Positions 31,634-60,199 of a DNA stretch of 64,000 nucleotides are shown here, one piece after another. Position numbers and translations under genes: made by a program. The notes under the pieces were generated by a model, which searched no databases, was not told the DNA's origin, and was given only the letters and a program-made list of their open reading frames with translations. Each line of letters starts with the position of its first letter. Position 1 is the stretch's first letter. The DNA comes from Candidatus Latescibacterota bacterium (GTDB lineage Bacteria; Latescibacterota; UBA2968). The stretch lies in NCBI GenBank assembly GCA_965116885.1, contig OZ220741.1, positions 1,888,001-1,952,000 on the forward strand, written 5' to 3'.

Positions 31634-31643
31634 CCATCGAGTT

Positions 31644-36831: not shown

Positions 36832-36885
36832 ATATACAGGCGGATAGTGACCGTATTTTAGATTTTTGCATTGGAGGAGGGTAAA

Positions 36886-37068
36886 ATGGCGATTCGACGT
36901 AAGTTGACTCTGATCAATGGAACGATGGACAAAGAAGGTGGTATTCATACATATCAGGCGACGGACAGTTTTAAAATGGGCGGCTGTGAACCTGGCTGGA
37001 TAGCTGTTCCTCCCCTGCCCTTTCCCGATGACGATGATGATTGGGACGATTTTGATCGCACCGAGTAA
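36886..37068 (+). CDS. Putative RiPP precursor peptide (60 aa, single Cys, poly-Asp tail)
   Basis: GGAGGAGG RBS; first gene after the sigma54 promoter, directly upstream of the RRE-rSAM; MAIRRKLTLINGT..MGGCEPGW..DDDDDWDDFDRTE. Confidence 0.8.
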   Translation: MAIRRKLTLINGTMDKEGGIHTYQATDSFKMGGCEPGWIAVPPLPFPDDDDDWDDFDRTE

Positions 37069-37087
37069 TCTGTCTCTGTTCTGAGGA

Positions 37088-39451: not shown

Positions 39452-39507
39452 GGGGCAGTAATTCCCAGTTGCGAATAACGATTTGATTGAACGCGTTGTG
39501 GAAAGGG

Positions 39508-39557
39508 TTGGTGGCATTTTAAACCTTCTTGCTCTTAAGCGATAAAATGTCCGCCAA
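39508..39557. repeat. 50-bp direct repeat, copy 1 (att-like)
   Basis: TTGGTGGCATTTTAAACCTTCTTGCTCTTAAGCGATAAAATGTCCGCCAA, identical at 41659-41708. Confidence 0.92.
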
Positions 39558-39670
39558 AATGAGGCAAGTCCAACCTTTTTACAGAACTTTTCGGACTTGT
39601 TCTTTTTGATTCTGGGTACTGCGTGTACTACCAACCCACCGCGACAACGTTTATGGAAGGAGAAGTAGCG

Positions 39671-41530: not shown

Positions 41531-41658
41531 TCGTTGTGACGGCGTCCAGCGGTCAGACCCGCCGGGCCCTGAAGAGAGTCCCGTCTCGATATTGAAGAAT
41601 CGGATCATAAAACTCTGTACGCGGGAGTTCGGGCGGCAAGGCGTTGTTGAGGAATGGT

Positions 41659-41718
41659 TTGGTGGCATTTTAAACCTTCTTGCTCTTAAGCGATAAAATG
41701 TCCGCCAATGTCCGCCAA
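41659..41718. repeat. 50-bp direct repeat, copy 2, with an extra tandem TGTCCGCCAA
   Basis: Identical to 39508-39557, followed by a 10-bp duplication. Confidence 0.92.
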
Positions 41719-41758
41719 AACGGGGCAAGTCCATCATTACAGTGAAGGATGGATCAGC

Positions 41759-45326: not shown

Positions 45327-46007
45327 ATGGACAAGCAGCAAATTTTGATTGTAGATGATGAACCACTGGTAATATCAGAGCTTGTAGGATTTTTGAGAGA
45401 TGAACCTTATGAGATATTCACCGCGAGAAATGGGATAGAAGGTTTTGAAATTTTAAGAAAAGAGGAGATCGCCCTTGCCGTCGTCGAGATGAAGATAAAG
45501 GATATGGATGGAATAACGCTGTTGAAGCGTGTGAAGGAGGAGAAAATTCAAACGGTTATGCTGATCATGACAAGTTCGGGGAACATGGAATTGGGCGCGG
45601 AAGTGATCAAGGCTGGCGCAGTGAGTGTATTTGATAAACCGATAGAAAAAGATGTGTTTTTGGCGAAGGTCAAAAAATATATACCTCTGCAAGATATTTG
45701 GAAGACCTGGTTGGAATCATTTTTGGAGGCTAATTACAGCAATCCAAAGCTGAGATTTGAAGATGTCATGGGTCATTTCAGGTTCTCGGAAAGCTATGGA
45801 TATAAATTGTTTAAGAAGCACCTGGGAATGTCATTCCGGATGTGCCTTCGGAATGTACGCCTGACAAAGGCTGAGGAAGCGTTGAAGAACACATCATATA
45901 CCCTTTCAGAAATTGCTTGCCTGTGTGGGTTTGCATCTTTATCGACTTTTAGCAAGGTTTTCAAAGAGACGTATGGGGTTAGTCCGACCACATATCGAAA
46001 AAAGTAG
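45327..46007 (+). CDS. Receiver-domain + AraC HTH transcriptional regulator
   Basis: ILIVDDE receiver (Glu at the apparent phospho-acceptor position, AVVEMK); EIACLCGFASLSTFSKVFKETYGVSPTTYR. Confidence 0.92.
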   Translation: MDKQQILIVDDEPLVISELVGFLRDEPYEIFTARNGIEGFEILRKEEIALAVVEMKIKDMDGITLLKRVKEEKIQTVMLIMTSSGNMELGAEVIKAGAVSVFDKPIEKDVFLAKVKKYIPLQDIWKTWLESFLEANYSNPKLRFEDVMGHFRFSESYGYKLFKKHLGMSFRMCLRNVRLTKAEEALKNTSYTLSEIACLCGFASLSTFSKVFKETYGVSPTTYRKK

Positions 46008-46098
46008 CGACTGGAACAAATTTTTGCAGGTTAGGACAAACTTTCGGGCTTGGAACTTAAGAGCAATCAAATCATATTATCATCCACATCACAAAAAA

Positions 46099-46135
46099 GC
46101 TGCCGACAGACCCTAACAGGTCGAGTGTCGGCGGT
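46099..46135 (+). repeat. Leader hairpin motif, copy A
   Basis: GCTGCCGACA-GACC..GGTC-GAG-TGTCGGCGGT. Confidence 0.85.
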
Positions 46136-46220
46136 AAGCAGCATCTTGAGTTATAAGAGAACCCTTGCACATTCAAAAGATAGTGTTGATGAGAATAATC
46201 GGATCCGAGCGGATAACACA

Positions 46221-47567
46221 ATGGCTATAACAGAAAGAGAGCTTCTGGAAATTGCCGATTCCAGACAGATGCTGAAAGAAAAAATCGCATCGCACGAAGC
46301 GCGGATAGCGGTGATGGGATTGGGGTATGTGGGATTGCCTTTATCTGTGGCATTGGGCAAGGTGGGATTTTCCGTCACGGGAATCGATACATCGGCGCGC
46401 AAAGTAGATCTGGTGGAATCGGGAAAGTCCGATGTGCAGGGTGTATCGGAATTTGAAGTAGCAGGTCTCAAAGCTGTGGGAAAATTGACAGCAACGCGAG
46501 AATGCGATGTGCTCAATGAGGCCGATGTGATTGTGGTATGCGTGCCCACACCTTTAAATAAAACACGCGACCCGGATGTCTCGTTTATTTTGCAAGCATG
46601 TGGTGCAATCAAAGACCGACTGCGCTGCGGACAACTGGTGATTTTGGAGAGCACGACGTATCCAGGGACGACCCATGAACTGGTATTGCCCCTGCTCGAA
46701 GAAAGTGGCTTGAAAGTTGGTCGAGATTTTTTTCTGGTATTTTCTCCAGAGCGCGTCGATCCGGGCAATAAAGTTTATACCATCACCAATACGCCCAAAG
46801 TCGTGGGGGGTATTACCCCGTCTTGCACAGAAATAGGCACGCATTTTTACCGGCAATTGATCGGCGAAGTCGTACCGGTCTCATCAACCCAGGCTGCTGA
46901 AATGACCAAGTTGCTCGAAAATACTTTTCGCAGTGTAAATATCGGCCTGGTCAATGAAGTGGCACTGATGTGTGATCGCCTGAGGGTGGATGTTTGGGAA
47001 GTAATCGATGCCGCAGCGACCAAGCCGTTTGGGTTTATGCCGTTTTATCCCGGTCCTGGGTTGGGCGGGCATTGTATCCCGGTTGATCCGCACTTTCTGG
47101 CCTGGAAGCTCAAGACCTTGAATTACAATGCGCGCTTTATCGAATTGGCCAGTGAAGTCACGCGCAGTATGCCGGGCTATGTGGTCGAAAAAATCACCGA
47201 CGCACTCAACGAATACGAGCGGTGTTTGAAAGGCTCGAACATCCTGATATTGGGCGTGACGTATAAACCCGATGTGCGCGATATTCGCGAGTCGCCGGCA
47301 TTGGATATTATAGAAATGCTTCAGGAGAAAGGGGCGAAAGTCTCGTATTGCGATCCGTTTGTAGATCACTTGCAGACAGAAAATTTGGACTTGAAGAGTA
47401 CCTCTTTAAACAAAAAAAATATAACAGAAGCCCATTGTATGGTGATTGTGACGCATCACAGCGATTGGGATTATGAATGGGTCGTAAAGCACGCACGTTG
47501 TATTGTCGATACGCGCAATGCCACGCAGGCTGTATCTGGAAACAAAGATCACGTCTTTAAACTATAG
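46221..47567 (+). CDS. UDP-N-acetylhexosamine 6-dehydrogenase (WbpA/WecC-type)
   Basis: GLGYVGLP, CVPTP, ESTTYPG, SPERVDPG, KLLEN, GGHCIPVDP. Confidence 0.92.
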   Translation: MAITERELLEIADSRQMLKEKIASHEARIAVMGLGYVGLPLSVALGKVGFSVTGIDTSARKVDLVESGKSDVQGVSEFEVAGLKAVGKLTATRECDVLNEADVIVVCVPTPLNKTRDPDVSFILQACGAIKDRLRCGQLVILESTTYPGTTHELVLPLLEESGLKVGRDFFLVFSPERVDPGNKVYTITNTPKVVGGITPSCTEIGTHFYRQLIGEVVPVSSTQAAEMTKLLENTFRSVNIGLVNEVALMCDRLRVDVWEVIDAAATKPFGFMPFYPGPGLGGHCIPVDPHFLAWKLKTLNYNARFIELASEVTRSMPGYVVEKITDALNEYERCLKGSNILILGVTYKPDVRDIRESPALDIIEMLQEKGAKVSYCDPFVDHLQTENLDLKSTSLNKKNITEAHCMVIVTHHSDWDYEWVVKHARCIVDTRNATQAVSGNKDHVFKL

Positions 47568-47625
47568 CATTACAAGATTGCGCTTCTCCAGTCCAATCCT
47601 CGACAGATCACCTGACTAATTTGGG

Positions 47626-48627
47626 ATGCTACCTTTGAAGATTCTATTTGATATTCTCCACGTTGCACATCTTAATTTTTTCAAGTCAGCCATCGAATCG
47701 TTGAAGGCCAGACACGATGTGTCGGCTGTTGTCAGGCAAAGAGGTAATCTTGTTGCCATAGCGGAGTCAGATCTCCCTTGTTCCTTTCGTGTAATGGGCG
47801 CTCATAGAACTGGTGTTAGAAAGATGGTTGGGGTATGGGAAAGGGTCGTTGATCTCAAGAAGATAGTATGCGAAATGGAGACAGATGTTTTGGCGAGTTG
47901 TGGATTCTATTCGGGCATAGTTTCGCGGTTTTGTCGCGTGCGGTCTGTGATTTTTTATGACGACTTCGAATACAAGCTAAATTTTTGGCCGTGTCTTTTA
48001 TTTGCTCATCAACTTGTCTTACCTGAAGCACTCGGAGCGGCAGGCAGAAACATCATTCAATACAAGGGGTTCAAAGAGTTGGCTTACTTGAACCGATTTG
48101 TCCCGCAACCGAAGATTTTAGGTGGGTATGGCGTTCAGCCAGGAGAGTATGTTTTCGTCAGGTATGTTGCACCTATCAGCATGAACTATCGACGCCTGGG
48201 TCAGAAAGAAGTTACGCAAGCGACCAATGCGATTTTAAATACTGGAATGATCATCATAGCCTCCCTTGAGCGGGGAATAAATCTCGAATTCGAACACCCC
48301 AATTTCCGAAAGGTTGTTGAACCTTGTCCCAGTATCCATTCCCTGATTTACTATTCAGCCCTGGTGGTAACTACTGGAGATACTGTTGCAAGGGAAGGCG
48401 CTCTCTTAGGAGTGCCTACTATCTATCTTGGAAGAAGGGAAATGCGCATAAATCGAGAATTAGTCGAGTGTGGACAATTAATAATCCCTGATCCTGGTGA
48501 GGCGACTAAAGAAATATTGGCAAATCTTAGCAATAGAGTTCCGCGAGTCAAACCTGAGAATAAAAAGTGGGAAGACACAACGGAGGTCATTGTCTCCTGT
48601 ATTGAGCAACAGAAATTCACAAAGTAG
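47626..48627 (+). CDS. DUF354-like GT-B fold protein
   Basis: ILFDILHVAHLNFFK, YKGFKELAYL, GDTVAREGALLGVPTI. Confidence 0.75.
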   Translation: MLPLKILFDILHVAHLNFFKSAIESLKARHDVSAVVRQRGNLVAIAESDLPCSFRVMGAHRTGVRKMVGVWERVVDLKKIVCEMETDVLASCGFYSGIVSRFCRVRSVIFYDDFEYKLNFWPCLLFAHQLVLPEALGAAGRNIIQYKGFKELAYLNRFVPQPKILGGYGVQPGEYVFVRYVAPISMNYRRLGQKEVTQATNAILNTGMIIIASLERGINLEFEHPNFRKVVEPCPSIHSLIYYSALVVTTGDTVAREGALLGVPTIYLGRREMRINRELVECGQLIIPDPGEATKEILANLSNRVPRVKPENKKWEDTTEVIVSCIEQQKFTK

Positions 48628-48768
48628 TTTTGTCCGATATCAGATGATATTGGATTGTCCGGCAAATGGTAATTCAATCTGGTAAATATAGATTTGATGC
48701 GATGAAAATATTGGGATAATCAATCGGGATTAGGATTGATGTAGGTATATGGAAGGTAAGGGTGCAGG

Positions 48769-50139
48769 ATGAAAATTTGTGTGGTTGGTTTGGGCCATGT
48801 TGGCACTGTGAATATTGCCTACTTGCTTGAACGAGGTCATATCGTCACAGGCATGGATGTCTCCCAGGAGAGAATCCGCCATCTTTTTGCCGGTGAGCCT
48901 GAACCAGAACCCCGCGTAAGCGACCTGCTAAGTTCAGCACTTAGAAGTGGGAGGCTCCAGCTTTCGACTGACTACTTCAAAGCCGTTGAGGAGGCGAGTG
49001 TAGCGATCATCTGTGTAGGTACTCCGCGAGGTGAGAAAGACGGAATACCAAATCTGAGTTTTCTTTATCAGGCTGTAACGTCACTGGTTGAGATAGTCAA
49101 CAAGAAAAGAGGTACGTTTGACGTCGTTCTGCGCAGCACTGTTCCGCCCGGGACGACGCGTGATATCGTCTCTGGAGCCTTCGGGAATTTTGGCAATGTC
49201 TGGTATTACCCGGAGTTCTTGAGAGAAGGAAGCGCAATGGAGGACATGAATGATCCCCCGATTCGGATCGTTGGTGCTCCAAAGACTGGTTATTGTCAGC
49301 GCGTGTTAGATATTTACGGTGAGGCTGGGCCGGTGTACATTACCGAATACGAAATAGCTGAAATGGTAAAGTATGTATGCAATGCTTTTCATGCTATGAA
49401 GGTTACTTTCACGAATGAGATATCGAATATTTGTAGATATCTCGGGATAGACAGCAATAGAGTAATGGAAGTCGTGTGCTCAGACAACAAGCTCAATATG
49501 TCAAAAGCCTATATGAGGCCGGGATTCGCATTCGGAGGATCCTGTCTTCCAAAGGATCTTACAGCACTCCTGCGGCTATCGAACGGACGACAAGGACCTG
49601 AATTGCCTCTGCTGACCAATATCATCGTCAGTAATGATCTTCACATCAAGTCCACGGTCAGGAGGGTAAGGTCACTTGCCGTTCGAGGAACATTGGGTAT
49701 GTTGGGTTTGAGTTTTAAGCCCAATACAGGCGACTTGAGGGATAGTCCGTTCGTAAAACTCGGAAATATGCTCATCTCAGAAGGGTATCATGTGATCGCA
49801 TACGACCCGTCAGTGGAGTTGGGTTTCCTGGACGTAGAGCAGACTTATATTCAAAGCGATGCCAGAGAGATGTGGCAGGGACAATTGACCAGATCCCTCA
49901 ATTCGCTGTGTGAGTGTTCCCTGCTGTTGATCGCACATCCCATTTCCTCATTTCCTACACCGATTTTACCCATCTTGAAGGGCAAGCACGTTCTTGATTT
50001 GTGCAACGATCCTTTGCGAGAGCAAATCGCTGCTATTGCTGACTATGAAGGTGTGGGCTGGGAATGCCGTTCAGGATGTGTTCGGAATGTCAGCTTAGCA
50101 AAGGCTGAAGAAGCGTTAAAGAACACATCATATTCATAA
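48769..50139 (+). CDS. GDP-mannose/UDP-glucose 6-dehydrogenase family protein with foreign C-terminal tail
   Basis: GLGHVG, CVGTP, RSTVPPG, PEFLREGSA, FGGSCLPKD, EGVGW followed by an AraC-derived tail. Confidence 0.9.
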   Translation: MKICVVGLGHVGTVNIAYLLERGHIVTGMDVSQERIRHLFAGEPEPEPRVSDLLSSALRSGRLQLSTDYFKAVEEASVAIICVGTPRGEKDGIPNLSFLYQAVTSLVEIVNKKRGTFDVVLRSTVPPGTTRDIVSGAFGNFGNVWYYPEFLREGSAMEDMNDPPIRIVGAPKTGYCQRVLDIYGEAGPVYITEYEIAEMVKYVCNAFHAMKVTFTNEISNICRYLGIDSNRVMEVVCSDNKLNMSKAYMRPGFAFGGSCLPKDLTALLRLSNGRQGPELPLLTNIIVSNDLHIKSTVRRVRSLAVRGTLGMLGLSFKPNTGDLRDSPFVKLGNMLISEGYHVIAYDPSVELGFLDVEQTYIQSDAREMWQGQLTRSLNSLCECSLLLIAHPISSFPTPILPILKGKHVLDLCNDPLREQIAAIADYEGVGWECRSGCVRNVSLAKAEEALKNTSYS

Positions 50140-50143
50140 AAAA

Positions 50144-50219
50144 GCCGCCGACAGACCCTGGCAAGTCGAATGTCGGCGGCAGACTGCAGTTCAAAGCTCA
50201 AGCATTTGGGAATGTGAGC
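50144..50219 (+). repeat. Two-hairpin leader motif, copy B
   Basis: GCCGCCGACA..TGTCGGCGGC, GCAGTTCAAA linker, GCTC..GCATT-TGGG-AATGT-GAGC. Confidence 0.9.
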
Positions 50220-50248
50220 TTGATGATTTAAGATACCTCAGGTGCCCC

Positions 50249-51070
50249 ATGTACCAATCTCTAAAATCTCTCAACTATCTTCGAAAGAAGGTAGCGGTTA
50301 CAACATATAGACAATGGAGTAATCGGTGGCGATGTCTTCCAGACTATTTACTCATTGGCGCTCAAAAATCTGGAACTACGTCGCTGTACAAATATCTGGT
50401 TTCACACCCCGAAGTCCATCGGTGCTTGAAAAAGGAGGTTGGTTACTTTGACCAGCATATCAATAGGGGATTGGCGTGGTATCTTGCTCATTTCCCGATC
50501 AAGGGTTCTGCGGGATTTCAGCAAGTAACTGGCGAGGCAACGGCTGAATATTATTATTTGCCACAAGTGCCCCAAAGAGTACTCTCGGTTGTACCTCAGG
50601 CTAAGTTAATCATACTGTTAAGAAACCCCTTAGAAAGAGCACACTCTCATTATTGGCATCTTTTTAATACAGGCCGCGAGCGAAGACCTTTCGCGAAAGC
50701 AGTTGAAGACGAATTACGTCTTTTGAGCACCGATAGTCATCTCATGAAAATAGGATTCAGTGGCAGTCCTGGCTATGTTGCTCGGGGAATGTACTCCAGG
50801 CATTTGAAAAGGTGGTTAAGTTTGTTTCCGGAGCGTAATTTAAGAGTACTTATTTCAGAAGATTTTTTTTCCAAACCGGCTGTTGGTTACAACGAGATAA
50901 CAGATTTTCTGCAGGTGCGCAGACACCTGCCTGAGGCGTTCAAGGTTTACAACTCTGCAGCCTATAAGACACCCATGCCCAATCGCACAAGAGAGATGCT
51001 GATTGAGTTCTATCATGGCGTTAATATGGAACTGTCTAATTTGCTCGGACGCCGTGTCCCATGGCCATAG
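50249..51070 (+). CDS. Sulfotransferase (heparan-sulfate O-sulfotransferase-like)
   Basis: LPDYLLIGAQKSGTTSL, KEVGYFD, GEATAEY, LRNPLERAHSHY. Confidence 0.92.
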   Translation: MYQSLKSLNYLRKKVAVTTYRQWSNRWRCLPDYLLIGAQKSGTTSLYKYLVSHPEVHRCLKKEVGYFDQHINRGLAWYLAHFPIKGSAGFQQVTGEATAEYYYLPQVPQRVLSVVPQAKLIILLRNPLERAHSHYWHLFNTGRERRPFAKAVEDELRLLSTDSHLMKIGFSGSPGYVARGMYSRHLKRWLSLFPERNLRVLISEDFFSKPAVGYNEITDFLQVRRHLPEAFKVYNSAAYKTPMPNRTREMLIEFYHGVNMELSNLLGRRVPWP

Positions 51071-51164
51071 TGAGTATGTCTTAAAAGGCTCGCGGCTTGT
51101 GTTCACGATTACACATTTGGTGGATAACGAGAAATTGAAGAGGTAAGCGTGCTATCATGAAAAA

Positions 51165-51240
51165 GCCGCCGACAGACCCTGGCAAGTCGAGTGTCGGCGG
51201 CAGACTGCAGTTCAAAGCTCAAGCATTTGGGAATGCGAGC
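51165..51240 (+). repeat. Two-hairpin leader motif, copy C
   Basis: Differs from copy B at only two positions. Confidence 0.9.
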
Positions 51241-51304
51241 TTAATGGTAAGATAGCTTTTGGTGGGTAGGTTGTCAACTATCGTGTAACTGGATATAAAA
51301 ATTT

Positions 51305-51598
51305 ATGAAGAAAAACACAGTAACAATATCTGAGATTGAGAATCAGATTCAAGGTTTGGTTCTGAAGGCATTAGACTGTGAAGCCTTATCTGATGATATA
51401 GATTGGGACAATCTTCCTCTGGCTTCTATACTCGATTCTATTTCCACTCTGGCCCTGGTGACAGGCTTAGAGGATGCATTTGATGTAATCGTAGAAGACG
51501 AAGAACTCACAGAAGAGATGCTGACTTCGACACGTTCGGTAGCACAGTATATATATGAGAAATTAACCACTGATACACATTCACTTGTTCCCGAATAG
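51305..51598 (+). CDS. Acyl carrier protein-like
   Basis: Acidic 97 aa; LDSISTLALVTGLEDAFDV contains the phosphopantetheine-site Ser. Confidence 0.85.
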   Translation: MKKNTVTISEIENQIQGLVLKALDCEALSDDIDWDNLPLASILDSISTLALVTGLEDAFDVIVEDEELTEEMLTSTRSVAQYIYEKLTTDTHSLVPE

Positions 51599-51636
51599 AT
51601 CAATACCATGAACTAAACACTGCGAGAGGTTTTTTG

Positions 51637-53541
51637 ATGGAGTATTTTTTTTCTGGGTTGACAGGTACAGGAACACGCGTAGGCGTCATTGATAGCGGTT
51701 TTAATGCAGGAAAAAAAAACGTGCATGTGTTGAATGGCACCAGTTTCTGTAATGGCGATTCCCAACCAGATTCAAAGTATAAAGATATGATAGGCCACGG
51801 CACAGCAGGTATTGGCGTCATCCACTCTAAAGCTCCCAATGCTGAATTTTTGCCTGTCAAAATTTTTGAGTCAGAGCTGATAGCGACAATGGATATTTTG
51901 TGCAAGGCGATTTACTGGTGTGTTGAACATCACTGTCACATTATCAATTTGAGTTTAGGCACTCTGGATGAGAGTAATAGCGATATTTTGAAGAATGCCT
52001 GTGATTTTGCACACAAACACCAGACGTTCATTGTTGCTGCGACATCAAATGATGGACAACCGAGTATTCCCGCGTCTTTTCCCAATGTCTTTGGCGTAGC
52101 AGGGGGAAAAGTTAATGGAAAATTTGATTACTTTTATGATCCGCACGAAAAAATACAATTTGTCGCGCGGGGTGATCGTCAACGCTTGGATTGGCTGGGA
52201 GGCAAACAGATATTTATGGGCGGGTCGAGCTTCGCGGCTCCGCATATTTCTGGCTTGATTGCTCTGATCATAGAGAAATATAATGGCATAACTTTCAACG
52301 ATCTGATAGAAATTTTGCAGAAACATTCCTTAACTCAATGTCCCAAGCTGGTAGATAGTAGCACTTATGCGATGAGCGAGATGCCCAGGTCCCGCTCAGA
52401 CGTTTCTATCCGCGATCTCAATAAGGCAAACACGCCAGGCTGGATAGAAGAGGCTGTTATTTTTCCATATAACAAAGAAATGCATGGATTGGTGCGGTTT
52501 CGGGAGTTATTGCCATTTAGACTTACAAGGGTAGTTGACGTTATTGGTAAAAGAACCATAGGCAAAGATTGTGGAAAGGTTATTGGTGGGTCCGAATCTA
52601 ATTTGATCATACAACAAAATTTGGAAGACTGCCTGCAATACGGCGATACGCTCGTTTTGGGTTATTTGGATGAAATTAGCCGGATTAAGAAACGCGATGT
52701 GTTACAAGAATCTCTGGAATTGGCATTGAAGCATAACAAGAATGTTTATAGTCTGAGTCCCATTGCAAATAAGCAATACGAAAGCATAAGCAAAGCATTT
52801 GAAGAAAAACATCTGTATTATGCAGCACCAACCATAGATTTTGCAACTTATGAGGTTTTGACCAAAACTTATGATTGGAGAAGCAGAAGCCAGAAACCTG
52901 TCGTGGGCATATTTGGGACAGGACCGCAGCAAGGCAAGTTCACTGCACAATTGGCACTGAGAAAACAATTACAAAAAATTGGCTATAAAGTTGGTCAATT
53001 GGGTACAGAACATCAATCTGCGTTATTTGATTTCGATTTTACATTTCCAAATGGATATGATGGGCATCAGAGCATCCAAATTCCCATGGATTTGCACATT
53101 CCACTTCTAAATTCCGCTATGGTCGGTATCGAACAATTAGACCCGGATATCATCGTTGTTGGCGGTCAGTCCGGTATTATACCTCATAACTTTTACGAAA
53201 AATCTCAGAGTTATACTTTGCCCTCATTGATCTTGCTTTTTGGAACCGTTCCCGATGCTTATGTCCTGCTCGTTAATTCTATCGACGAGCCTGAATTTAT
53301 ACAAGAAAATATCCGAGTATTAGAGAGCCTGGGAAAAGGAAAAGTGATTCTGCTTGTTTTTAGTGATAAGAAAAAAATTGTTAATAACACTGTTAATACA
53401 GTCGTCAACCAGCCGCTTTGTAGAGAGGAAATTTGTCAAACGATATTGACTTTGGAATCAACGCATTGCATTCCTGCGACTGAGATAATTAGCGCAGAAG
53501 GACAAAAAAAGATGGCCGATGTTGTTGTTGATTTTTTCTGA
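51637..53541 (+). CDS. S8 subtilase fused to a DUF1611/TIGR04066-like P-loop domain
   Basis: Triad VIDSG / GHGT / GSSFAAP; then FPYNKEMHGLVR, GIFGTGPQQGKFT, GQLGTE, IIVVGGQSG; no signal peptide. Confidence 0.85.
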   Translation: MEYFFSGLTGTGTRVGVIDSGFNAGKKNVHVLNGTSFCNGDSQPDSKYKDMIGHGTAGIGVIHSKAPNAEFLPVKIFESELIATMDILCKAIYWCVEHHCHIINLSLGTLDESNSDILKNACDFAHKHQTFIVAATSNDGQPSIPASFPNVFGVAGGKVNGKFDYFYDPHEKIQFVARGDRQRLDWLGGKQIFMGGSSFAAPHISGLIALIIEKYNGITFNDLIEILQKHSLTQCPKLVDSSTYAMSEMPRSRSDVSIRDLNKANTPGWIEEAVIFPYNKEMHGLVRFRELLPFRLTRVVDVIGKRTIGKDCGKVIGGSESNLIIQQNLEDCLQYGDTLVLGYLDEISRIKKRDVLQESLELALKHNKNVYSLSPIANKQYESISKAFEEKHLYYAAPTIDFATYEVLTKTYDWRSRSQKPVVGIFGTGPQQGKFTAQLALRKQLQKIGYKVGQLGTEHQSALFDFDFTFPNGYDGHQSIQIPMDLHIPLLNSAMVGIEQLDPDIIVVGGQSGIIPHNFYEKSQSYTLPSLILLFGTVPDAYVLLVNSIDEPEFIQENIRVLESLGKGKVILLVFSDKKKIVNNTVNTVVNQPLCREEICQTILTLESTHCIPATEIISAEGQKKMADVVVDFF

Positions 53542-53572
53542 GATCAAGACCTCAAGGATAGGGAGAAAGTAA

Positions 53573-54295
53573 ATGCAAGAAATTCGGAAAATGTCGCTGA
53601 TTTTGAATATCCTGTTATCTGTTTTTCTTATGGTTGCGTTATTTGGGATATGGAAGTTGAAAAATACGAACGCTCGTCGTTGGGAGGAAATCAGAGAGCT
53701 TCGAAAAGAGAATGCAGATTATAAGGAGCACATAAATACTTCTACTTATGCATCCAATTTTCAAGGACAGGAATTTCCGAAGTTGCAATTGAAAAACATA
53801 AATGGCGATTGGATTTCAACAGACTTTTCTAAAACAGGAAAAGGATTGGTTCTGGTCTTCAAGCCGCGAGACTGTCAGCCTTGTCTAATCACCCAGATAA
53901 AGTTATTGGAGCATGTGTACCAAAATCAAGATCCCTCAAAACGCTTTCCAATTTATGCTTTTGCCAATGCTACTCCAGAAGTATTGAAAAAATTTAAAAA
54001 GAGTTTTGATCTCCATTACGAGTTGCTTCCGGATACTGAGAACAAGTTATTCGAAAATCAATTACTTACCCGTCGTACCCCTGCTATCTTTGTTGTGAAC
54101 AAACAAAATATTATAACGCATTGTCATTTGCCCTCAAAGGACCGCCCTCAAAATACAGTCCTCTTTTTTGGTGTGATTCAAAGACATTTGCCTTTGCAAA
54201 AACCACTTCTGAACGATCATCTTGAAGGAGTAACCTATTCTCAAATTATTGCCAAAGATTTTGATATTGATCCTTTATCTACATTGATGTATTGA
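53573..54295 (+). CDS. Membrane-anchored thioredoxin-fold (redoxin) protein
   Basis: N-terminal TM helix, FPKLQLKNING, CQPC, TPAIFVVNK. Confidence 0.8.
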   Translation: MQEIRKMSLILNILLSVFLMVALFGIWKLKNTNARRWEEIRELRKENADYKEHINTSTYASNFQGQEFPKLQLKNINGDWISTDFSKTGKGLVLVFKPRDCQPCLITQIKLLEHVYQNQDPSKRFPIYAFANATPEVLKKFKKSFDLHYELLPDTENKLFENQLLTRRTPAIFVVNKQNIITHCHLPSKDRPQNTVLFFGVIQRHLPLQKPLLNDHLEGVTYSQIIAKDFDIDPLSTLMY

Positions 54296-54340
54296 TATTT
54301 ACGAACAAGATGTGGCAGGGCAAAAAGATTGATATAAATA

Positions 54341-54422
54341 GCCGCTGACAGGCCCTGGTGAGTCGAGTGTCGGTGGTAGGGCGCAACAGCAGTTCAAAGT
54401 CCAAGCATTTGAGAATATGAGC
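54341..54422 (+). repeat. Two-hairpin leader motif, copy D
   Basis: GCCGCTGACA..TGTCGGTGGT, GCAGTTCAAAG, AAGCATTTGAGAAT. Confidence 0.85.
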
Positions 54423-54522
54423 ATGAGAGCCTGATTTTACTTGAAGCCCATCAAGTAAAGAGTCGCTTATACGCACGCAGGTCCATGCAGAATATGACTC
54501 AAAAAGTAAAGGAGGTGATACT

Positions 54523-54738
54523 ATGAAAGCATTGACCAAGCCGAAGAAGTTTCAGGCTATGTCTCGTATCTATGGATACGAGTTAGAATGGGATGTGGAC
54601 CCCCCGGCTGTCTGTGTCACAACAGGAAGTATCAATGTTAACGACGAGGATCCAGATAATCCTAAAGAGGAGATATACGTGTGCGAGGGTACGTGTGAAC
54701 CGTATTACGATTGCGACGTCGACAGCGACTGTGAATGA
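54523..54738 (+). CDS. Putative precursor peptide 1 (Cys/Asp/Glu-rich core)
   Basis: AAGGAGGTG RBS; leader MKALTKPKKFQAMSRIYGYEL shared with 59084-59284; 5 Cys. Confidence 0.85.
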   Translation: MKALTKPKKFQAMSRIYGYELEWDVDPPAVCVTTGSINVNDEDPDNPKEEIYVCEGTCEPYYDCDVDSDCE

Positions 54739-54843
54739 CCTCAATTATCAATGCCGGCTCATTTTGGTGTGAAGAGGTATTCGATTGCAACGAATGCTGA
54801 TCCGTGGCTGTCGTTTAAAAAGCGAGCTTGATGGGCTTCAAGT

Positions 54844-54887
54844 TTGGATCGGTGTTCTCGGTAAACAGGCTTGGAACACCGATCCAA
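54844..54887 (+). other. Strong 3' hairpin after precursor 1
   Basis: TTGGATCGGTGTTC/GAACACCGATCCAA 14-bp stem; repeated after precursor 2. Confidence 0.8.
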
Positions 54888-54912
54888 CGATAAATAATAA
54901 GGATTATCATTA

Positions 54913-56019
54913 ATGAAGAAAAAAAAATTATTGGTTTCAGTGGAGTGGCTAACACTCCTCTTTCTCATCCTTGGAGGTTGCGAAAAGAGTGCGGTTGAAA
55001 ACCAGAAAGCGGTTGAAAATCAGAAAGATGCAATCGTTCTCGATACGCAAACACAAGGAACCCATCTCTCATTGGTTGGTGATATCACGCTGGAGCTCCC
55101 AGAGGCTGGCCCCGCACTCGGTAGGGTAGGTTCTGTGACGATTGCGGAGGACTATATCATAATTTTAGATAACCTGAGAAAAAGTGTTGAAGTTTTTGAC
55201 AGAGAGGGAAACTACAAGTGGCCTATTGGCAGTCGGGGGGACGGAGTAGGCCAGTACAAGATACCGAGCGGGTCTGCTATTATACCCAATACCGACCAAA
55301 TACTGATCTACGATGGAGGTCCCATAAAAATTCTTCGTTTCTCACTCAAAGGTGAATTTATAGGGCGGGTAAGGCTATCTGAGAGACGCGCCATTAATCG
55401 TATGGTGGTTTCTGAAGGTCACAATTTCATTCATACTTATGTTGATAGAAACAGAAACGGTATGCTTTGTGTAACTTCTCTGGACACAGGTGAAGACCTC
55501 GCTAAGTTCAAAGTCTGCGAGCCTGAATATAGACGCCTATTTTTTGCTTTTAAGCGTTTTCAAGGGCTTGCTTATGACGAAGCGCGAAAAATCATATACT
55601 TTGTCCTACCGTGGGGTGGTGAGGTTGTGCGGATTGATTTGGCAACGCAGGAGTTTCTCCCTTCTCTAACTATAAATCATCCCAAATTTATCAGTCTTAA
55701 ATTAGAAGAGGACAAAACTGCAAAAAAATTATTAAAAACTAAGTTTAGTAGATTGTACGGCATGTCTCTTCTGTCTTCGGGAGATGTTTTACTCAGGTAC
55801 CTGTTCAGGGATTCATCAAACAGTACTGCGTTTATACTTTTTTCTGACCTGAGCGTGGAGCCTTATGCCCAAGAGATGAAAAATGAACTGAGATACAATA
55901 GTTTCACTTCTCAGGGGATGTCTATATATGAGTATTTATCGCCTGCCGATGACGAGGATACGAATGGTAAGATTCGTATCTATCGTCTTATCGATACTCC
56001 TGAATCCCCTACCGGCTAA
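54913..56019 (+). CDS. Six-bladed beta-propeller lipoprotein
   Basis: Lipobox LGGC; VFDREGNY..IGSRGDGVGQY NHL-like blade. Confidence 0.8.
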   Translation: MKKKKLLVSVEWLTLLFLILGGCEKSAVENQKAVENQKDAIVLDTQTQGTHLSLVGDITLELPEAGPALGRVGSVTIAEDYIIILDNLRKSVEVFDREGNYKWPIGSRGDGVGQYKIPSGSAIIPNTDQILIYDGGPIKILRFSLKGEFIGRVRLSERRAINRMVVSEGHNFIHTYVDRNRNGMLCVTSLDTGEDLAKFKVCEPEYRRLFFAFKRFQGLAYDEARKIIYFVLPWGGEVVRIDLATQEFLPSLTINHPKFISLKLEEDKTAKKLLKTKFSRLYGMSLLSSGDVLLRYLFRDSSNSTAFILFSDLSVEPYAQEMKNELRYNSFTSQGMSIYEYLSPADDEDTNGKIRIYRLIDTPESPTG

Positions 56020-56120
56020 TAGCGAAAGTCAACTCGTTGAGCATCTCTATCATCACTATTTTCAATGATTAATCCGACGACATTTTTCACGGGTATTCTT
56101 CGTTTATATCACGGGTGAAT

Positions 56121-57890
56121 ATGAAGGACAAACAACAAGTCATATCAGCTATTTCCAATATCTCTAAGCAGAGACACGTCTTTTATCATTTTTTGAAATT
56201 TCTAAGACCGTATTGGATACACGAAAGCATTGTTTTCGTCCTCATGATTTTAGGGACCGTTAGCTCGCTGGCCTTTCCCTATATCATGAAAATTATTATT
56301 GATGACGTGTTTCCAAACAAAGATTATGAACTCTTGATATTTATTTTGCTTCTGCTCCTGGGCATTACAGTAGGCAATATCATTATTAGTTTTTGTTCAA
56401 ACTATTTATTTGCCTGGATAAAAAATCGCGTTATGCTGGATATAAGAAGCCATCTTTTTGACCACTTAATCCAGTTGCCATTGAGCTTTTATGATCGCAA
56501 TAAATCTGGGGATATTGTTTATAGAATGAGCAACGAAGTTGATAGAATACAGTCGTTTATCACTTCAAGTGCTTTGAGTCTTGTACATAGCTTGCTGACA
56601 CTCATAGGGCTTACTGTGGCTCTCTGCTGGTTGAACTGGCAGCTATTTTTGGTTTCTATTATTGTAATACCTTTTCTGGCACTCAATATTCGCTACTTCC
56701 AGCCCAAGATAAGAGATATTACGGAACGAGGACGAAAGAAAGGCTCTGAAGTTATGAGCTATTTGATTGAGCGATTTGAGACTGTCCAATTGATTCAGGT
56801 CTATAATGCCTATCATTACGAAAACAATAGATTGTGGTCGCAGCTAAATGATCTCCTGAGTATCAATATGCAAAATGTAACCTGCTCTGGAGCTATGAGG
56901 TCCATTTCGAGATTTTTAACGTCATTGACGCCTGCAATCATTCTGGGATGGGGAGGGCATAAGGTGATGTTGGGGGTTATGAGCCTGGGGGCATTGGTTG
57001 CTTTTTTGCAATACCTGTCGCGCCTTTTTGCACCATTTAGAAATCTCAACCGCCTTTATATCGCCCTCATCCGTGTATCTGTTTCAATGAAACGAGTATT
57101 CGAATTTCTCGAGATTGATGTTCAGAAAATAACAGATGGGTCTGCCGCCAGTCCGTTTTCTTTTCAAAAGGAGATTGCGTTCACCAACCTCAATTTTGGA
57201 TATAATGGACAACCCGTTTTGCAGGACTTCAGTTTAAGACTGGAGAAAGGAAAAAAATATGCTCTGGTGGGGTCAAGTGGTTGTGGCAAGAGTTCATTAG
57301 TAAATGTACTGTGTCGTTTTTATGACTTGAATACAGGTGTGATTACTATTGACCATACACCGATTACCGATATCAAGCTGTATGATCTGAGAGAGCATAT
57401 TGGTCTGGTAACCCAGGAGAATCAAGTTTTTCATGATACAATCTGGAATAATATCCGATACAGCAAGCTGGAAAGTACGCCTGAAGAAATCAATCGAGCG
57501 ATCAGCATAGCTGGTTTGAATGAATTTATTGAGAGGGCTGAAGATGGTGCGCTTACGCTTATCGGTGACCGAGGTAACACACTGTCGGCTGGACAAAGGC
57601 AGCGTATTGCTATTGCGCGTGCAATTTTGAGAGACTCGGATATTCTGATCCTGGATGAAGCTACGTCGGCACTGGATTCTGAAAGCGAAGGTGAAATTAT
57701 AGCAAATTTACAGGATCTATATGAAAATAAGACGATGATTGTGATTAGCCACAGACTCAGCACGATCCAGCAGGTAGATGAGATTATTTGCTTGGATGAG
57801 GGGAGAGTTGTGGAGCAAGGAGCACATGAGGAGTTGATGGAGAAGAAGGGGTATTATTGGCGTCTTTTTCGCAAGCAACTTATCGCATAG
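56121..57890 (+). CDS. ABC exporter, fused permease/ATPase (no C39 peptidase domain)
   Basis: TM domain, GSSGCGKS, LSAGQRQR, ILDEATSALD, ISHRL. Confidence 0.95.
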   Translation: MKDKQQVISAISNISKQRHVFYHFLKFLRPYWIHESIVFVLMILGTVSSLAFPYIMKIIIDDVFPNKDYELLIFILLLLLGITVGNIIISFCSNYLFAWIKNRVMLDIRSHLFDHLIQLPLSFYDRNKSGDIVYRMSNEVDRIQSFITSSALSLVHSLLTLIGLTVALCWLNWQLFLVSIIVIPFLALNIRYFQPKIRDITERGRKKGSEVMSYLIERFETVQLIQVYNAYHYENNRLWSQLNDLLSINMQNVTCSGAMRSISRFLTSLTPAIILGWGGHKVMLGVMSLGALVAFLQYLSRLFAPFRNLNRLYIALIRVSVSMKRVFEFLEIDVQKITDGSAASPFSFQKEIAFTNLNFGYNGQPVLQDFSLRLEKGKKYALVGSSGCGKSSLVNVLCRFYDLNTGVITIDHTPITDIKLYDLREHIGLVTQENQVFHDTIWNNIRYSKLESTPEEINRAISIAGLNEFIERAEDGALTLIGDRGNTLSAGQRQRIAIARAILRDSDILILDEATSALDSESEGEIIANLQDLYENKTMIVISHRLSTIQQVDEIICLDEGRVVEQGAHEELMEKKGYYWRLFRKQLIA

Positions 57891-57893
57891 GGA

Positions 57894-58403
57894 ATGGAAC
57901 TGGTGAGTTTAGAATTTCGCAATCCTGACATAAAATTAATTCTCCTGCGTGTATTGGTCATCCAAGTTTTGGGAATAGGCACAGGATTGATTTATACTGT
58001 TATTTTTAGTGAACAGCTTTTGTTCGGCGAGGTTGAAACCTCTGAAAAACAAGATGATATAACGTATGTCTCTTTAGAAGTTCTTCAAAATATAATTCAT
58101 TCGAAATCAAAAATATTACTCATCGATGGGCGTTCTGAATCTGCTTATCACAGAGGCCATATTCCAGGGGCTGTGAACATACCGTATATTCAGCGCGATT
58201 ATTTTTTTCGTCAGCTTTTGGCTGATGTTGCTCGTGAGACCCTAATAATTGTCTATTGTTCTGGCAAGAATTGTAATATCAGTGTCAAATTGGCGAGGTC
58301 TCTATCAGGGGAATTTGGATTTATACATGTTCGAGTTTTTGAGGGAGGATGGGAGGAATGGGTAAAGGGAAAAAATCCGATCCAAACGAGTTTTGACAGA
58401 TGA
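57894..58403 (+). CDS. Membrane-anchored rhodanese-like protein
   Basis: LIDGR, GHIPGAVNIP, IVYCSG, FEGGWEEW. Confidence 0.88.
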   Translation: MELVSLEFRNPDIKLILLRVLVIQVLGIGTGLIYTVIFSEQLLFGEVETSEKQDDITYVSLEVLQNIIHSKSKILLIDGRSESAYHRGHIPGAVNIPYIQRDYFFRQLLADVARETLIIVYCSGKNCNISVKLARSLSGEFGFIHVRVFEGGWEEWVKGKNPIQTSFDR

Positions 58404-58867
58404 TTATACCTGCTAAATTAGCCTGGACAGGAACCGTAGTCCGGATATTTCTGGGACTTATTCTCGGATGGGCCGGGGTTGTAAAAATCCGTAATCCGAA
58501 AGCATTTATTGAAATTGTTAAAGCCTACAATTTGCTACCTGAGGAATTGGTCGTGCTATGGGGGATCTTCTTGCCCTGGATTGAGCTTGTGACAGGTTTA
58601 TTTTTATTTCTCGGTTTGTGGCACAGGAGTGCCGTGCTCAGTTGTTCTGGTCTCTTTTTTGTATTTGCAGCAGCCGTAGGCATTAATATTCTCCGGGGGG
58701 CAGATATCGCCTGTGGTTGTTTTGGGTTCAATGACACCAATTTGTATGTTGTGTTGTTCCAGGACCTGGTTTTCTTGCTTTGCTGTTATTTTTTGGTTTT
58801 TCTAAAATCTACACCTTATTCTCTGGACCATTGCTTTTCTACTTCTCAAAGTGGTGGACTTTCGTAA
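58400..58867 (+). CDS. MauE/DoxX family redox-associated membrane protein
   Basis: RIFLG..AGVVK, LPWIELVTG, CGCFG. Confidence 0.88.
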   Translation: MIIPAKLAWTGTVVRIFLGLILGWAGVVKIRNPKAFIEIVKAYNLLPEELVVLWGIFLPWIELVTGLFLFLGLWHRSAVLSCSGLFFVFAAAVGINILRGADIACGCFGFNDTNLYVVLFQDLVFLLCCYFLVFLKSTPYSLDHCFSTSQSGGLS

Positions 58868-58884
58868 AGTATTCCCTGGCAAAA

Positions 58885-58979
58885 GCCGCCGACAGACCCT
58901 GGCGAGTCGAGTGTCGGTGGTAGCCCCCAGGGGTAGGTTGTAGTAGCAGTTCAAAGCGCAAGCATTTGGGAATGTGAGC
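58885..58979 (+). repeat. Two-hairpin leader motif, copy E
   Basis: GCCGCCGACA..TGTCGGTGGT, longer linker, AAGCATTTGGGAATGTGAGC. Confidence 0.88.
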
Positions 58980-59083
58980 GTGAGAGCATGCATGGTTTTA
59001 CTTGAAGCCCATCAAGTAAGGTGCCTCTTATATGCACGCATATTCATGCAGGATATGACTGAAAAAGTAAAGGAGGTGATACT

Positions 59084-59284
59084 ATGAAAGCTTTGACCAA
59101 GCCGGAGAAGTTTCGATCTATGTCTCGTATCTATGGATATGAGCTACCAGATGATATAATAGGATATCAATGTGAATTTCAAGGCTATACCGATATTGTC
59201 GTAGATGGTGTGGTCGTTGGTCAAACGGAAGATTGGGACTGCGTGAGTGTAGTTGATGAGATATTCGATTGCGACGGCTGCTAA
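59084..59284 (+). CDS. Putative precursor peptide 2
   Basis: Same RBS and leader (MKALTKPEKFRSMSRIYGYEL); different core with 4 Cys ending FDCDGC. Confidence 0.85.
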   Translation: MKALTKPEKFRSMSRIYGYELPDDIIGYQCEFQGYTDIVVDGVVVGQTEDWDCVSVVDEIFDCDGC

Positions 59285-59545
59285 TCCGTGGCTCTCGTTG
59301 AAAAACTAAGGTGTGCTACTGAGCTTGATGGGTTTCAAGTTTGGATCGGTGTTCTCGGTAAACAGGCTGGGGATACCGATCCAACGATAATAGTAAGGAT
59401 TATCATTGGGGATGGCGTAGGCCAGTTGAAGATTGCGATATTCTCGTATCGGAACCGTGTCTTTTATGATACATCAAAAGGACAATCCAATGAACAAGGC
59501 GATATGTAGTTGGCCTGAATTTGATATCGAAGAAGAATTGAACAG

Positions 59546-60199
59546 ATGATTGTGAATGATAGGTTTAAGAGGATCGTTAGGACGATTTTGTGCAAAGTAT
59601 TTAGTCAAGGTATCATTTTTTTAATTTTGATTTTTGGGGGAAGCGGAGTAGTTGCCATTTATGCTTATCCCTTTTTTGCGATAAGTAAACCACTACATGG
59701 CGACATTATGGTCGTAGAAGGATGGTTGCGTGGTGAAGAACTAAGATCGGCATTACAGATTTACAGAGCTGGCAAATACTCTCAGATTGTCGTGACTGGA
59801 GGTCATTTCGCCTATAGCACTGCAACAACTCTTGCCTCAGAATGGCAAATTGATCCCGACCGCGTCAAGGTGGCTGTTCGCGACATGCCGAATGGGAAGT
59901 TTGAGCGAGATCGCACATTTAATTCCGCATTAGGACTTCGTCACTGGCTACTCGAGGCGAATCAAAAAGAAAAAAAAGTTGATATAGTTACGAGAGGTCA
60001 TCATGCCAGGCGTTCGTTTATTTTATTTAAAACCGCCCTTGATGGCGTGGCACAAGTAGGCGTTATAGCTGTTTCCCCCTATAACTACGATCCTGATTAC
60101 TGGTATGATTCAAGTGCAGGGTTCAGGTCGGTTATAGGTGAAATCATCGCCTACATTTATGTAAAACTTATTTTCACTCCTGAGTTTCCCAAAATATAG
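59546..60199 (+). CDS. YdcF/DUF218 family protein
   Basis: MVVEGW, IVVTGG, RTFNSA, VTRGHHARRS, EIIAYIY. Confidence 0.8.
   Translation: MIVNDRFKRIVRTILCKVFSQGIIFLILIFGGSGVVAIYAYPFFAISKPLHGDIMVVEGWLRGEELRSALQIYRAGKYSQIVVTGGHFAYSTATTLASEWQIDPDRVKVAVRDMPNGKFERDRTFNSALGLRHWLLEANQKEKKVDIVTRGHHARRSFILFKTALDGVAQVGVIAVSPYNYDPDYWYDSSAGFRSVIGEIIAYIYVKLIFTPEFPKI

Follow-up and report, generated by a model that had tools for sequence, protein, structure and literature searches.

Two short genes, cassA and cassB, lie in a 64,000-nucleotide (nt) stretch of the genome of a Candidatus Latescibacterota bacterium (contig OZ220741.1, positions 1,888,001 to 1,952,000; hereafter the window). They are probably paralogous genes for leader-dependent secreted peptides of a rare family lacking annotation, with precursors of the RiPP (ribosomally made, post-translationally modified peptide) or bacteriocin type, and their flanks probably act as functional RNA or regulatory elements. 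A repeat search of the window paired 54429-54585 with 58990-59146 (157 nt, 88%) and 54824-54893 with 59321-59390 (70 nt, 94%). By segment, the two cassettes are 73.5% identical in an outer 5' element, 87.2% in the 5' untranslated region (UTR), 88.9% over leader codons 1-21 (56 of 63 nt, with three synonymous and three non-synonymous codon differences), and 93% from the 3' box described below through the ribosome-binding site (RBS) of a propeller gene. These values bear out the first-pass annotation of this DNA, which had described two open reading frames (ORFs) with similar 5' UTRs, RBSs, 21 leader codons, and 3' flanks. Similarity falls sharply at codon 22 and resumes about 10 codons ahead of the cassB stop. 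A tblastn search of the whole 5.56-Mb genome identified cassA and cassB as the sole copies.

Relatives of the two peptides were recovered by a word-indexed search (19) and by a profile search (23). In an exhaustive HMMER search, 23 of 1.84 billion representatives matched at E<=0.001; 20 of these are peptides of 37 to 82 amino acids (aa), and three long proteins (816 to 3684 aa) with partial alignments were regarded as spurious. Source names are known for two relatives only, Candidatus Poribacteria and Candidatus Latescibacteria. Because a single-protein search of 61 relatives gave weak matches only, a profile search was needed; among 168 genomes of the phylum it matched eight, including the window's own, all of the same genus. 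Beyond cassA and cassB, there are eight further copies in seven same-genus genomes. Nine copies in 7 of 21 genus genomes are intact, all with AAAGGAGGTGATAnTATG, and genome G001 carries a further copy truncated at its 5' end. Among 31 genomes of the taxonomic family, an RBS followed by ATGAAR occurs at nine sites in seven genomes, every one a precursor gene (control matches, 0), and a strong RBS is kept at 9/9 sites. The annotation had named beforehand a lack of leader homologs as the outcome that would speak against a peptide family; homologs were found, both among the 1.84 billion representatives and in same-genus genomes.

Across 32 peptides, the leader of 20 to 21 residues follows the motif MKxLxKPxxF...IYGYE. 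Fifteen of its first 20 positions are invariant in a 20-row alignment, and its codons vary synonymously across the genus. The cores (17 to 61 aa) are 27% acidic versus 3% basic and carry one to seven cysteines, mostly two, four, or six, with an even count in 25/32 and a C-terminal Cys in 21/32. The combination of constant leader and hypervariable core, which had been taken to mark a diversity-generating RiPP family, is thereby confirmed as that of a real precursor family. Some members with the same leader have cores resembling neither cassA nor cassB (for example, a CNDILENEDD...DPDINEC class), so one leader serves several core classes.

At the protein level, a direct comparison of core A and core B is no better than shuffled sequence (local score 31, z 0.4, p 0.34), and a forced global alignment (50%) is not a real alignment. 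At the DNA level they have a common ending, TATT(A)CGATTGCGACG (p 0.004). Four relatives resemble both cores, with z scores against cassA and cassB of 8.0 and 11.2 (P0006), 3.8 and 8.9 (P0005), 4.2 and 12.0 (P0002), and 3.9 and 10.2 (P0004). The shared traits noted in the first pass (acidity, four to five cysteines, a common ending) therefore stand, the last at the DNA level, but the description of the cores as unrelated does not, since both are similar to intermediates such as P0006 and P0005; by these scores the two are divergent and linked. Further searches were without result: a protein Atlas held no usable match for the precursors, alignment of the peptides against genome contigs matched 25 stretches of which none was confirmed, and a degenerate back-translated leader had 0 matches in genome contigs and 0 in metagenome contigs. 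A search of the literature on Poribacteria RiPPs with radical SAM enzymes, and on ranthipeptides with subtilisin and acyl carrier proteins, turned up nothing relevant.

Pairings in the flanks and the shared 5' element

A 5' box upstream of the RBS and a 3' box behind the ORF are complementary over 15 to 18 bp, so that their pairing encloses RBS and ORF; a hairpin follows the 3' box. The predicted duplex has an energy of -20.9 to -32.3 kcal/mol in 8/8 intact cassettes tested (cassA, -32.3), and several non-cognate box pairs fall far short of this (the cassA 5' box with the G006 3' box, for one, reaches -14.3). Covariation was assessed in an alignment of nine cassette regions that are related and non-independent, with G001 consisting mostly of gaps; the second cassette of G017 was excluded, as its 3' flank could not be aligned with the 3' box. 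In the 12-pair box helix, 96.9% of cells are paired, compared with 27% to 48% in slid controls. Two pairs have changed on both sides (CG in five and UA in three sequences; UA in six, CG in one, and UG in one), and in cassA and cassB both boxes carry a 1-nt insertion, that of the 5' box matching that of the 3' box. The two cells scored as unpaired are an alignment artefact of this matched insertion. The 3' hairpin is 89.3% paired and has four pairs with compensatory changes. For the structure as a whole, the covariation score was reached by 2/500 shuffles and the count of double-change cells by 8/500. Both the minimum free energy and centroid folds of whole cassette RNAs contain the closing stem and the hairpin (z -4.1 and -5.45). 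The stem and hairpin thus appear best explained as conserved pairings with compensatory change in a functional RNA.

The 3' hairpin was also considered as an intrinsic terminator and rejected, as the terminator scan did not call it and no U-tract lies behind it. In Rfam 15, only tRNA reached the gathering threshold over the whole window, and there were no matches at E<=1 over 45900-59600.

The likeness of the 5' flanks reported in the first pass holds, but their outer ~100 nt are not cassette specific. Five copies of this 5' element occur in the window (46088, 50133, 51154, 54330, and 58874), preceding a UDP-sugar dehydrogenase gene, a sulfotransferase gene, a gene for a protein like acyl carrier protein (ACP), and both cassettes, and nhmmer identified 20 copies at E<=0.001 in seven related loci. 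We aligned 23 copies, the five of the window and 18 of the 20 from related loci; the two weakest were omitted, as were four of the window genome's five other copies. In this alignment 94.7% of stem cells are paired, many as G-U. Most copies have an A/T-rich -10-like box immediately upstream of the stem, and we read the element as a promoter-proximal leader common to the operons of the cluster. Considered as a possible sigma-54 promoter, TGGCAAGTCGAGTGTC in the element has the -24 GG, with GT instead of the -12 GC; canonical TGGCACAGAAATTGC sites are found elsewhere in the genomes.

Weaker, variant 5' elements are present in the window's genome at G000:C1:1758747, 1833825, 2396422, and 4280491 (+) and at 5488306-5488414 (-), each before a REC-AraC response-regulator gene. 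Behind an extended -10-like box they contain a hairpin GCCGCCGACAAGACC...CTGTCAGCGGC and a CTCAAG...CTTGAG hairpin. The window further holds a 53-nt repeat (87%; 45847-45899 versus 50081-50133), and the dehydrogenase ORF 48769-50139 ends (...AKAEEALKNTSYS) in a piece of the AraC-type regulator gene (45327-46007), fused beside a copy of the 5' element. The fused piece is a further sign of duplication at this element.

In the mechanism that we propose, the flanks would be under purifying selection as RNA or regulatory elements, and the genes would look like cassettes because constraints differ along the transcript. The stem formed by the two UTRs may be a panhandle for processing or stabilising the RNA, by which precursor dosage would be uncoupled from the genes downstream. 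Should the stem govern processing or stability, this would amount to a new means of setting the precursor dose relative to the enzyme.

Gene cluster and candidate pathway

The genes around the cassettes (Table 1) keep their order in seven genus loci: ACP-like, S8/TIGR04066, TlpA-like, precursor, propeller, (permease), ABC exporter, rhodanese, and MauE. In the window, cassB is followed by DUF218 and glycosyltransferase genes. The ACP-like gene, the first behind the 5' element copy at 51154, is syntenic in 6/6 related loci covering that position, and TIGR04069 is absent from the 10 matches of its product at E<=0.01. The subtilase fusion matches Pfam S8 (83 bits) and DUF1611 (37.7 bits), NCBIfam QhpE (142.4 bits; cut-off 165), and, over residues 273-522, TIGR04066 (E 9.7e-35, 120 bits; cut-off 200). 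Its orthologs (88% to 93% identity) are found in exactly the six other genomes with an intact precursor, and it is a candidate leader protease. The TlpA-like gene is directly upstream of the precursor in the six related loci that carry it, and the propeller gene follows the precursor, directly or behind the permease, in every intact locus. Behind the propeller, related loci have a MacB/FtsX-type permease of about 830 aa, which in the window's genome is 1.3 Mb away. Identity between species is 62% to 77% for the propeller (89% in one pair, the same pair that has alignable cores), 71% to 84% for the permease, and 88% to 93% for the S8 protein; propeller and permease evolve faster than the S8 protein.

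Table 1 Features of the cassettes and of the surrounding cluster, in window coordinates
Feature	Position	Strand	Remarks
Radical SAM/SPASM gene	37088-38539		16 kb from the cassettes; NCBIfam matches below cut-offs
ACP-like protein	51305-51598	+	Under the Pfam cut-off (PP-binding, E 0.0032); NCBIfam ACP models match weakly
Subtilase (S8, QhpE-like) fused to TIGR04066-type 'peptide maturation system' domain with DUF1611 P-loop	51634-53541	+
Membrane-anchored TlpA/ResA-like thiol-disulfide oxidoreductase	53573-54295	+	Pfam AhpC-TSA, Redoxin
Shared 5' element, cassA	54330-54428	+	Hairpin GCCGCTGACA...TGTCGGTGGT, then CAGTTCAAAG..CAAGCATTTGAGAATATGAGC; nhmmer E 7e-32
5' box, cassA	54440-54455	+	CTTGAAGCCCATCAAG; complementary to 3' box
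RBS, cassA	54508-54519	+	AAAGGAGGTGAT; read from sequence
cassA precursor	54523-54738	+	71 aa; leader MKALTKPKKFQAMSRIYGYE and 51-aa core with 16 acidic residues, 5 Cys
Out-of-frame relic of older C-terminus	54735-54800	+	MTSIINAGSFWCEEVFDCNEC and stop, behind cassA stop
3' box, cassA	54827-54842	+	CTTGATGGGCTTCAAG; partner of 5' box
3' hairpin, cassA	54844-54887	+	14-bp stem, between precursor and propeller
DUF5128 six-bladed beta-propeller lipoprotein	54913-56019	+	Pfam DUF5128 52.8 bits
ABC exporter, fused permease and ATPase	56115-57890	+	No C39 peptidase domain; Pfam ABC_membrane, ABC_tran; 83-89% identical in relatives
Membrane-anchored rhodanese	57894-58403	+	Pfam Rhodanese
MauE/DoxX membrane protein	58400-58867	+	Pfam MauE 86.7 bits
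Shared 5' element, cassB	58874-58989	+	In relatives directly before DUF218 or GT4
5' box, cassB	59001-59016	+	Complementary to 59324-59339
cassB precursor	59084-59284	+	66 aa; leader MKALTKPEKFRSMSRIYGYE and 46-aa core with 12 acidic residues, 4 Cys, C-terminal C
3' box, cassB	59324-59339	+	One G-U against 5' box
3' hairpin, cassB	59341-59384	+
26-nt propeller fragment, right junction of cassB unit	59408-59433	+	22/26 identical to 55237-55262; 1/500 shuffles as high

Three paralogs of the S8/TIGR04066 fusion (33% to 41% identity) are encoded at G000:C1:1765854-1767704, 1842333-1844225, and 5478475-5480172, each in a cluster with an AraC-type regulator and an ABC exporter, joined in two cases by an ACP-like gene. 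They probably represent parallel peptide systems. Propeller-permease units without a precursor occur in G014 (L049), G005 (contig 24, L050), and G007 (L051), behind the canonical sigma-54 promoter TGGCACAGAAATTGC and a conserved upstream region, and at such a sigma-54 site in the window's genome the permease alone is left (G000:C1:581298-583781).

The product of the radical SAM gene scores best against maturase models of SCIFF (266 bits, the top match), Nif11, QhpD (252.7 bits versus 453), and PapB, all below their cut-offs. The gene adjoins the cluster in G006 and G017 and is present in 16 of 21 genus genomes. The window's genome has three copies, 94% identical to one another (the window locus 36871-38539, G000:C1:82666-84102, and 258739-260175), each behind its own ORF of ~65 to 70 aa with a conserved KLTL(I/V)NGT start, a variable middle with one to two Cys, and a conserved PFPDDDDDWDDFD end. 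Judged from this arrangement, these loci are a second, separate peptide system. Just upstream of the window copy, 31801-36573 encodes a 1590-aa protein with Ser/Thr kinase, AAA/TPR, GAF, sigma-54 activator, and helix-turn-helix domains. As a maturase of the cassettes the enzyme was downgraded, being multi-copy, having its own upstream peptide, and being distributed independently of the cassettes, and on these grounds it is probably not their maturase. Since it is not cassette specific, the modification of the cassA and cassB peptides may be no more than disulfides. Cysteine counts are mostly even, and TlpA-like, MauE, and rhodanese proteins are encoded nearby, which together suggest that the mature peptides contain disulfides at least.

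A candidate pathway can be assembled from these genes. The leader, ending in IYGYE, would be a constant handle for the neighbouring machinery and would be removed by the QhpE-like subtilase fused to the TIGR04066 domain; the peptide would leave through the ABC exporter, and the TlpA-like, MauE, and rhodanese proteins may oxidise or handle its cysteines once it is outside the cytoplasm. The beta-propeller lipoprotein, together with the MacB/FtsX permease in relatives, would be a core-specific partner, most likely for immunity or handling. Its fast evolution, with that of the permease, and the precursor-less copies open a way to study competition through peptides in a phylum of which little but metagenomes is known. 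More tentatively, and with less than even odds by a wide distance, the precursor mRNA might be cut from, or stabilised in, the operon transcript by the covarying panhandle and a regulon-wide 5' leader, with each peptide, its own propeller lipoprotein, and a MacB-type permease forming a co-diversifying toxin-immunity module and the precursor-less propeller-permease units being orphan immunity genes. If true, a little-studied phylum would harbour an arms race of peptides and, with it, a new RNA device governing precursor dosage.

The same gene set admits another role for the peptides. Partner subunits of quinoprotein amine dehydrogenases are beta-propellers, and the peptides could be small Cys-bearing partner subunits of the adjacent propeller lipoprotein, matured like the small subunits of those enzymes by QhpE-like leader cleavage, ABC export, and MauD/MauE-like redox help. 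The propeller gene behind every intact precursor, the QhpE-like, QhpD-like, MauE, and TlpA-like matches, the coincidence of propeller and core similarity in one close pair, and the Qhp pathway as set out in the available part of its description (PMC7876137) are consistent with such a role. We nevertheless regard it as unlikely: the cores are hypervariable and have no conserved Trp or Cys positions for a cofactor, the propeller-permease units of G014, G005, and G007 have no precursor, cassB has no propeller of its own, and all family scores are under the curated cut-offs.

Divergence of the cores and movement of whole units

Evolution rates were computed for G005 versus G013, the only species pair with alignable cores. 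Their cores have a non-synonymous divergence (dN) of 0.55 and a synonymous divergence (dS) of 0.67 (ratio, omega, 0.82), with indels and with the cysteines conserved. Omega is 0.32 for the leader, and five neighbouring genes have dN of 0.02 to 0.08 and omega of 0.12 to 0.20. The cores therefore appear to diverge in place through substitutions, indels, and small duplications, nearly neutrally or under diversifying selection.

In the first pass, core diversity had been explained differently, with the flanks as homology arms through which repeated homologous recombination brings in other cores, from cassettes of the same genome or of other cells, yielding a shuffled repertoire. The drop in similarity at codon 22 and its return near the cassB stop fit this idea, as do the occurrence of the same leader with very different core classes in other organisms and the apparent sharing of contigs by A-like and B-like peptides elsewhere (longest contigs, 627,435 and 46,943). 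Against it stands that flanks within one genome are not more alike than those of different species. The 95 nt upstream of the start codon are 75% to 94% identical between species; cassA and cassB are 86% identical and cassB and G013 92%, the two copies of G017 86%, and the second of these and G002 94%. Within-genome homogenisation was looked for in this 95-nt comparison and not seen. Because the 5' UTR is equally similar between species and between copies, conservation of the flanks needs neither recent duplication nor gene conversion. The gradual divergence in place of the alignable core pair and the covariation in the flank RNA also speak against exchange, and the genome has only the two copies, with no silent store of cores.

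Two traces of rearrangement bear on the same proposal. The 3' flank of cassA, taken in the first pass as a conserved flank throughout, includes at 54767-54800 an out-of-frame relic of a cassB-like C-terminus (...WCEEVFDCNEC and a stop). An untranslated, cassB-like core end behind the cassA stop could fit core exchange, and the relic does match the 3' coding end of cassB (score 33, p 0.0). It also matches the end of cassA itself (score 25, p 0.0): 54767-54792 repeats 54693-54719 at an offset of 74 nt, out of frame, and a repeat of cassA's own end explains it. The second trace is cassB. At its position, G002, G005, G013, and G006 have the 5' element and then DUF218 or GT4, so that cassB amounts to about 450 nt of extra sequence. 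Its left junction coincides with the end of the shared 5' element, which could suit exchange within that element; its right junction lies after a propeller RBS and a 26-nt propeller fragment, and in relatives the sequence from 59434 on stands directly behind the 5' element. This suggests that cassB landed as a whole unit in the 5' leader of the DUF218 operon. G017 has two tandem 4.3-kb units of precursor, propeller, and permease. Among the rearrangements visible in the window and the genus loci, core-only exchange was not found; all are moves or duplications of whole units, including the propeller RBS or gene, or remodelling of ends. We conclude from these comparisons that recombination at the shared 5' element has relocated one unit at least once, that programmed core exchange is without support here, and that repeated exchange of cores between the flanks is improbable. 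The comparison covers genus genomes, and core swapping may occur among the closest relatives, P0002-P0019. Conserved pairing in the flanks, with cores diverging in place between them, offers a concrete and testable alternative to taking the conservation of flanks as a mark of recombination.

The boxes might instead be inverted repeats in the DNA of a cassette that inverts or moves, through phase variation or in the manner of a miniature inverted-repeat transposable element, rather than RNA partners. They are 16 bp long and bracket RBS and ORF, their arms change together across species, and cassB has moved as a unit. This explanation is very improbable, given that 9/9 intact cassettes share one orientation with respect to the propeller gene and the 5' element, that no recombinase gene is among the Pfam matches of the cluster, that the arm mismatches in cassB and G002 are G-U on the coding strand, and that the cassB junctions fall in the 5' element and the propeller fragment and not within the boxes. 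That the ORFs are regulatory upstream ORFs or chance ORFs in a conserved leader RNA of the propeller operon, as their shortness, the highly structured surrounding RNA, and the absence of a protein family match could suggest, is scarcely credible against a leader peptide conserved with synonymous variation (omega 0.32), a frame that stays open despite an unalignable core in nine genus copies and 20 or more metagenome peptides, and a maintained Cys and acidic composition.

Several observations weigh against reading cassA and cassB as peptide precursor genes within functional RNA flanks. Neither peptide matches a Pfam family or, at E<=0.01, any NCBIfam family (0 for both), and the S8/TIGR04066, ACP-like, and radical SAM proteins are all under the curated cut-offs of the named families. 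Nine of the 14 genus genomes that have no intact precursor carry the radical SAM gene. The second cassette of G017 has a 5' box, with a 3' flank that cannot be aligned to the 3' box. The covariation comes from nine related, non-independent sequences, and its count of further pair types is not significant (168/500 shuffles). In the 23 aligned copies of the 5' element, there is no covariation excess over shuffles, and this element could therefore be a DNA operator or promoter rather than RNA. The window's own locus is rearranged, with the permease elsewhere and cassB without a propeller, and may be partly decayed.

Other features of the window lie apart from the cassettes. A GC-rich palindromic element of ~60 nt, similar in look to repetitive extragenic palindromic sequences, is present in two copies (8513-8573 and 31641-31705) whose first 31 nt are 100% identical (GTTGTAGGGGACGGCCCCCGTGCCGTCCCGT). 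An ~80-nt repeat (88% to 95%; 39495-39577 versus 41646-41738) is found upstream of a tyrosinase-domain gene (39623-41530) and a patatin-like gene (41708-43510) and may be a shared regulatory leader. An IS605-family OrfB/TnpB gene with a Cas12f1-like TNB domain is located at 12382-13506 (-).

Comparison with known systems

Prochlorosins and cyanobactins combine a constant leader with hypervariable cores, and so do Bacteroidota GG-type precursors, which adjoin DUF5128-like propellers. The family described here is similar in having one conserved recognition leader for many unrelated-looking cores; it differs in leader sequence and enzymes and in having one or two copies per genome. To our knowledge, which on this point includes no literature search, RNA pairings that frame the precursor gene have no counterpart in constant-leader families. 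Precursors of rRNA have long-range 5'/3' stems cut by RNase III, and ompA mRNA has a stabilising hairpin at its 5' terminus. The cassettes resemble these in the 15- to 18-bp stem around the whole ORF and in a stem-loop beside a -10-like box at the likely 5' end, whereas their stem is a predicted pairing and encloses the ORF of a peptide precursor within a protein-coding operon. Ranthipeptides of the SCIFF type, with Cys-to-Asp/Glu thioethers made by radical SAM enzymes, likewise have cores rich in Cys, Asp, and Glu, and the SCIFF maturase is the best NCBIfam match of the radical SAM protein; the cassA and cassB precursors match no SCIFF model, and that protein has its own upstream peptide and a cassette-independent distribution.

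In the Qhp system (QhpC with QhpD, QhpE, QhpF, and QhpR), the QhpE subtilase removes a 28-residue leader ahead of export by an ABC transporter (PMC7876137). As far as the available part of that account describes it, the system shares with the cluster a leader-bearing small peptide rich in Cys and Asp/Glu, a QhpE-like subtilase, an ABC exporter without a peptidase domain, a QhpD-like radical SAM enzyme nearby, and AraC-type regulators. The scores are below the cut-offs (QhpE 142.4 versus 165; QhpD 252.7 versus 453), and the core here is hypervariable, unlike QhpC, a conserved cofactor-bearing subunit.

The closest described system appears to be the SacP23/CLI_3235 type of Paenibacillus and clostridia, which was compared through its TIGR04065 precursor, the TIGR04068 radical SAM enzyme CcpM, TIGR04066, and the ACP-related TIGR04069; tests of membership were negative for its precursor, CcpM, and TIGR04069 models and for the Qhp system. 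The SacP23/CLI_3235 bacteriocin cluster encodes a Cys-rich precursor with a 19-aa leader, a TIGR04066 protein, an ACP-related protein, a subtilase, an ABC transporter, and a radical SAM enzyme, according to the available part of its description (PMC10731318). The window's cluster is similar in its short precursor with a leader of ~19 to 20 aa and a Cys-bearing core and, within the same limits of that description, in the joint presence of TIGR04066-type, ACP-like, subtilisin-like protease, and ABC exporter genes. It differs in that TIGR04065 does not recognise the cassA and cassB precursors, nor TIGR04069 the ACP-like protein; the TIGR04066 domain is fused to the subtilase and reaches 120 bits where the cut-off is 200, and the nearby radical SAM protein scores 170 bits against 500 for CcpM and is not family specific. 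The strongly acidic cores, the additional propeller, MauE, rhodanese, and TlpA-like genes, and the phylum set it apart as well. The peptide family is new to annotation, and its gene set joins maturation features of the SacP23 type with those of the Qhp type.

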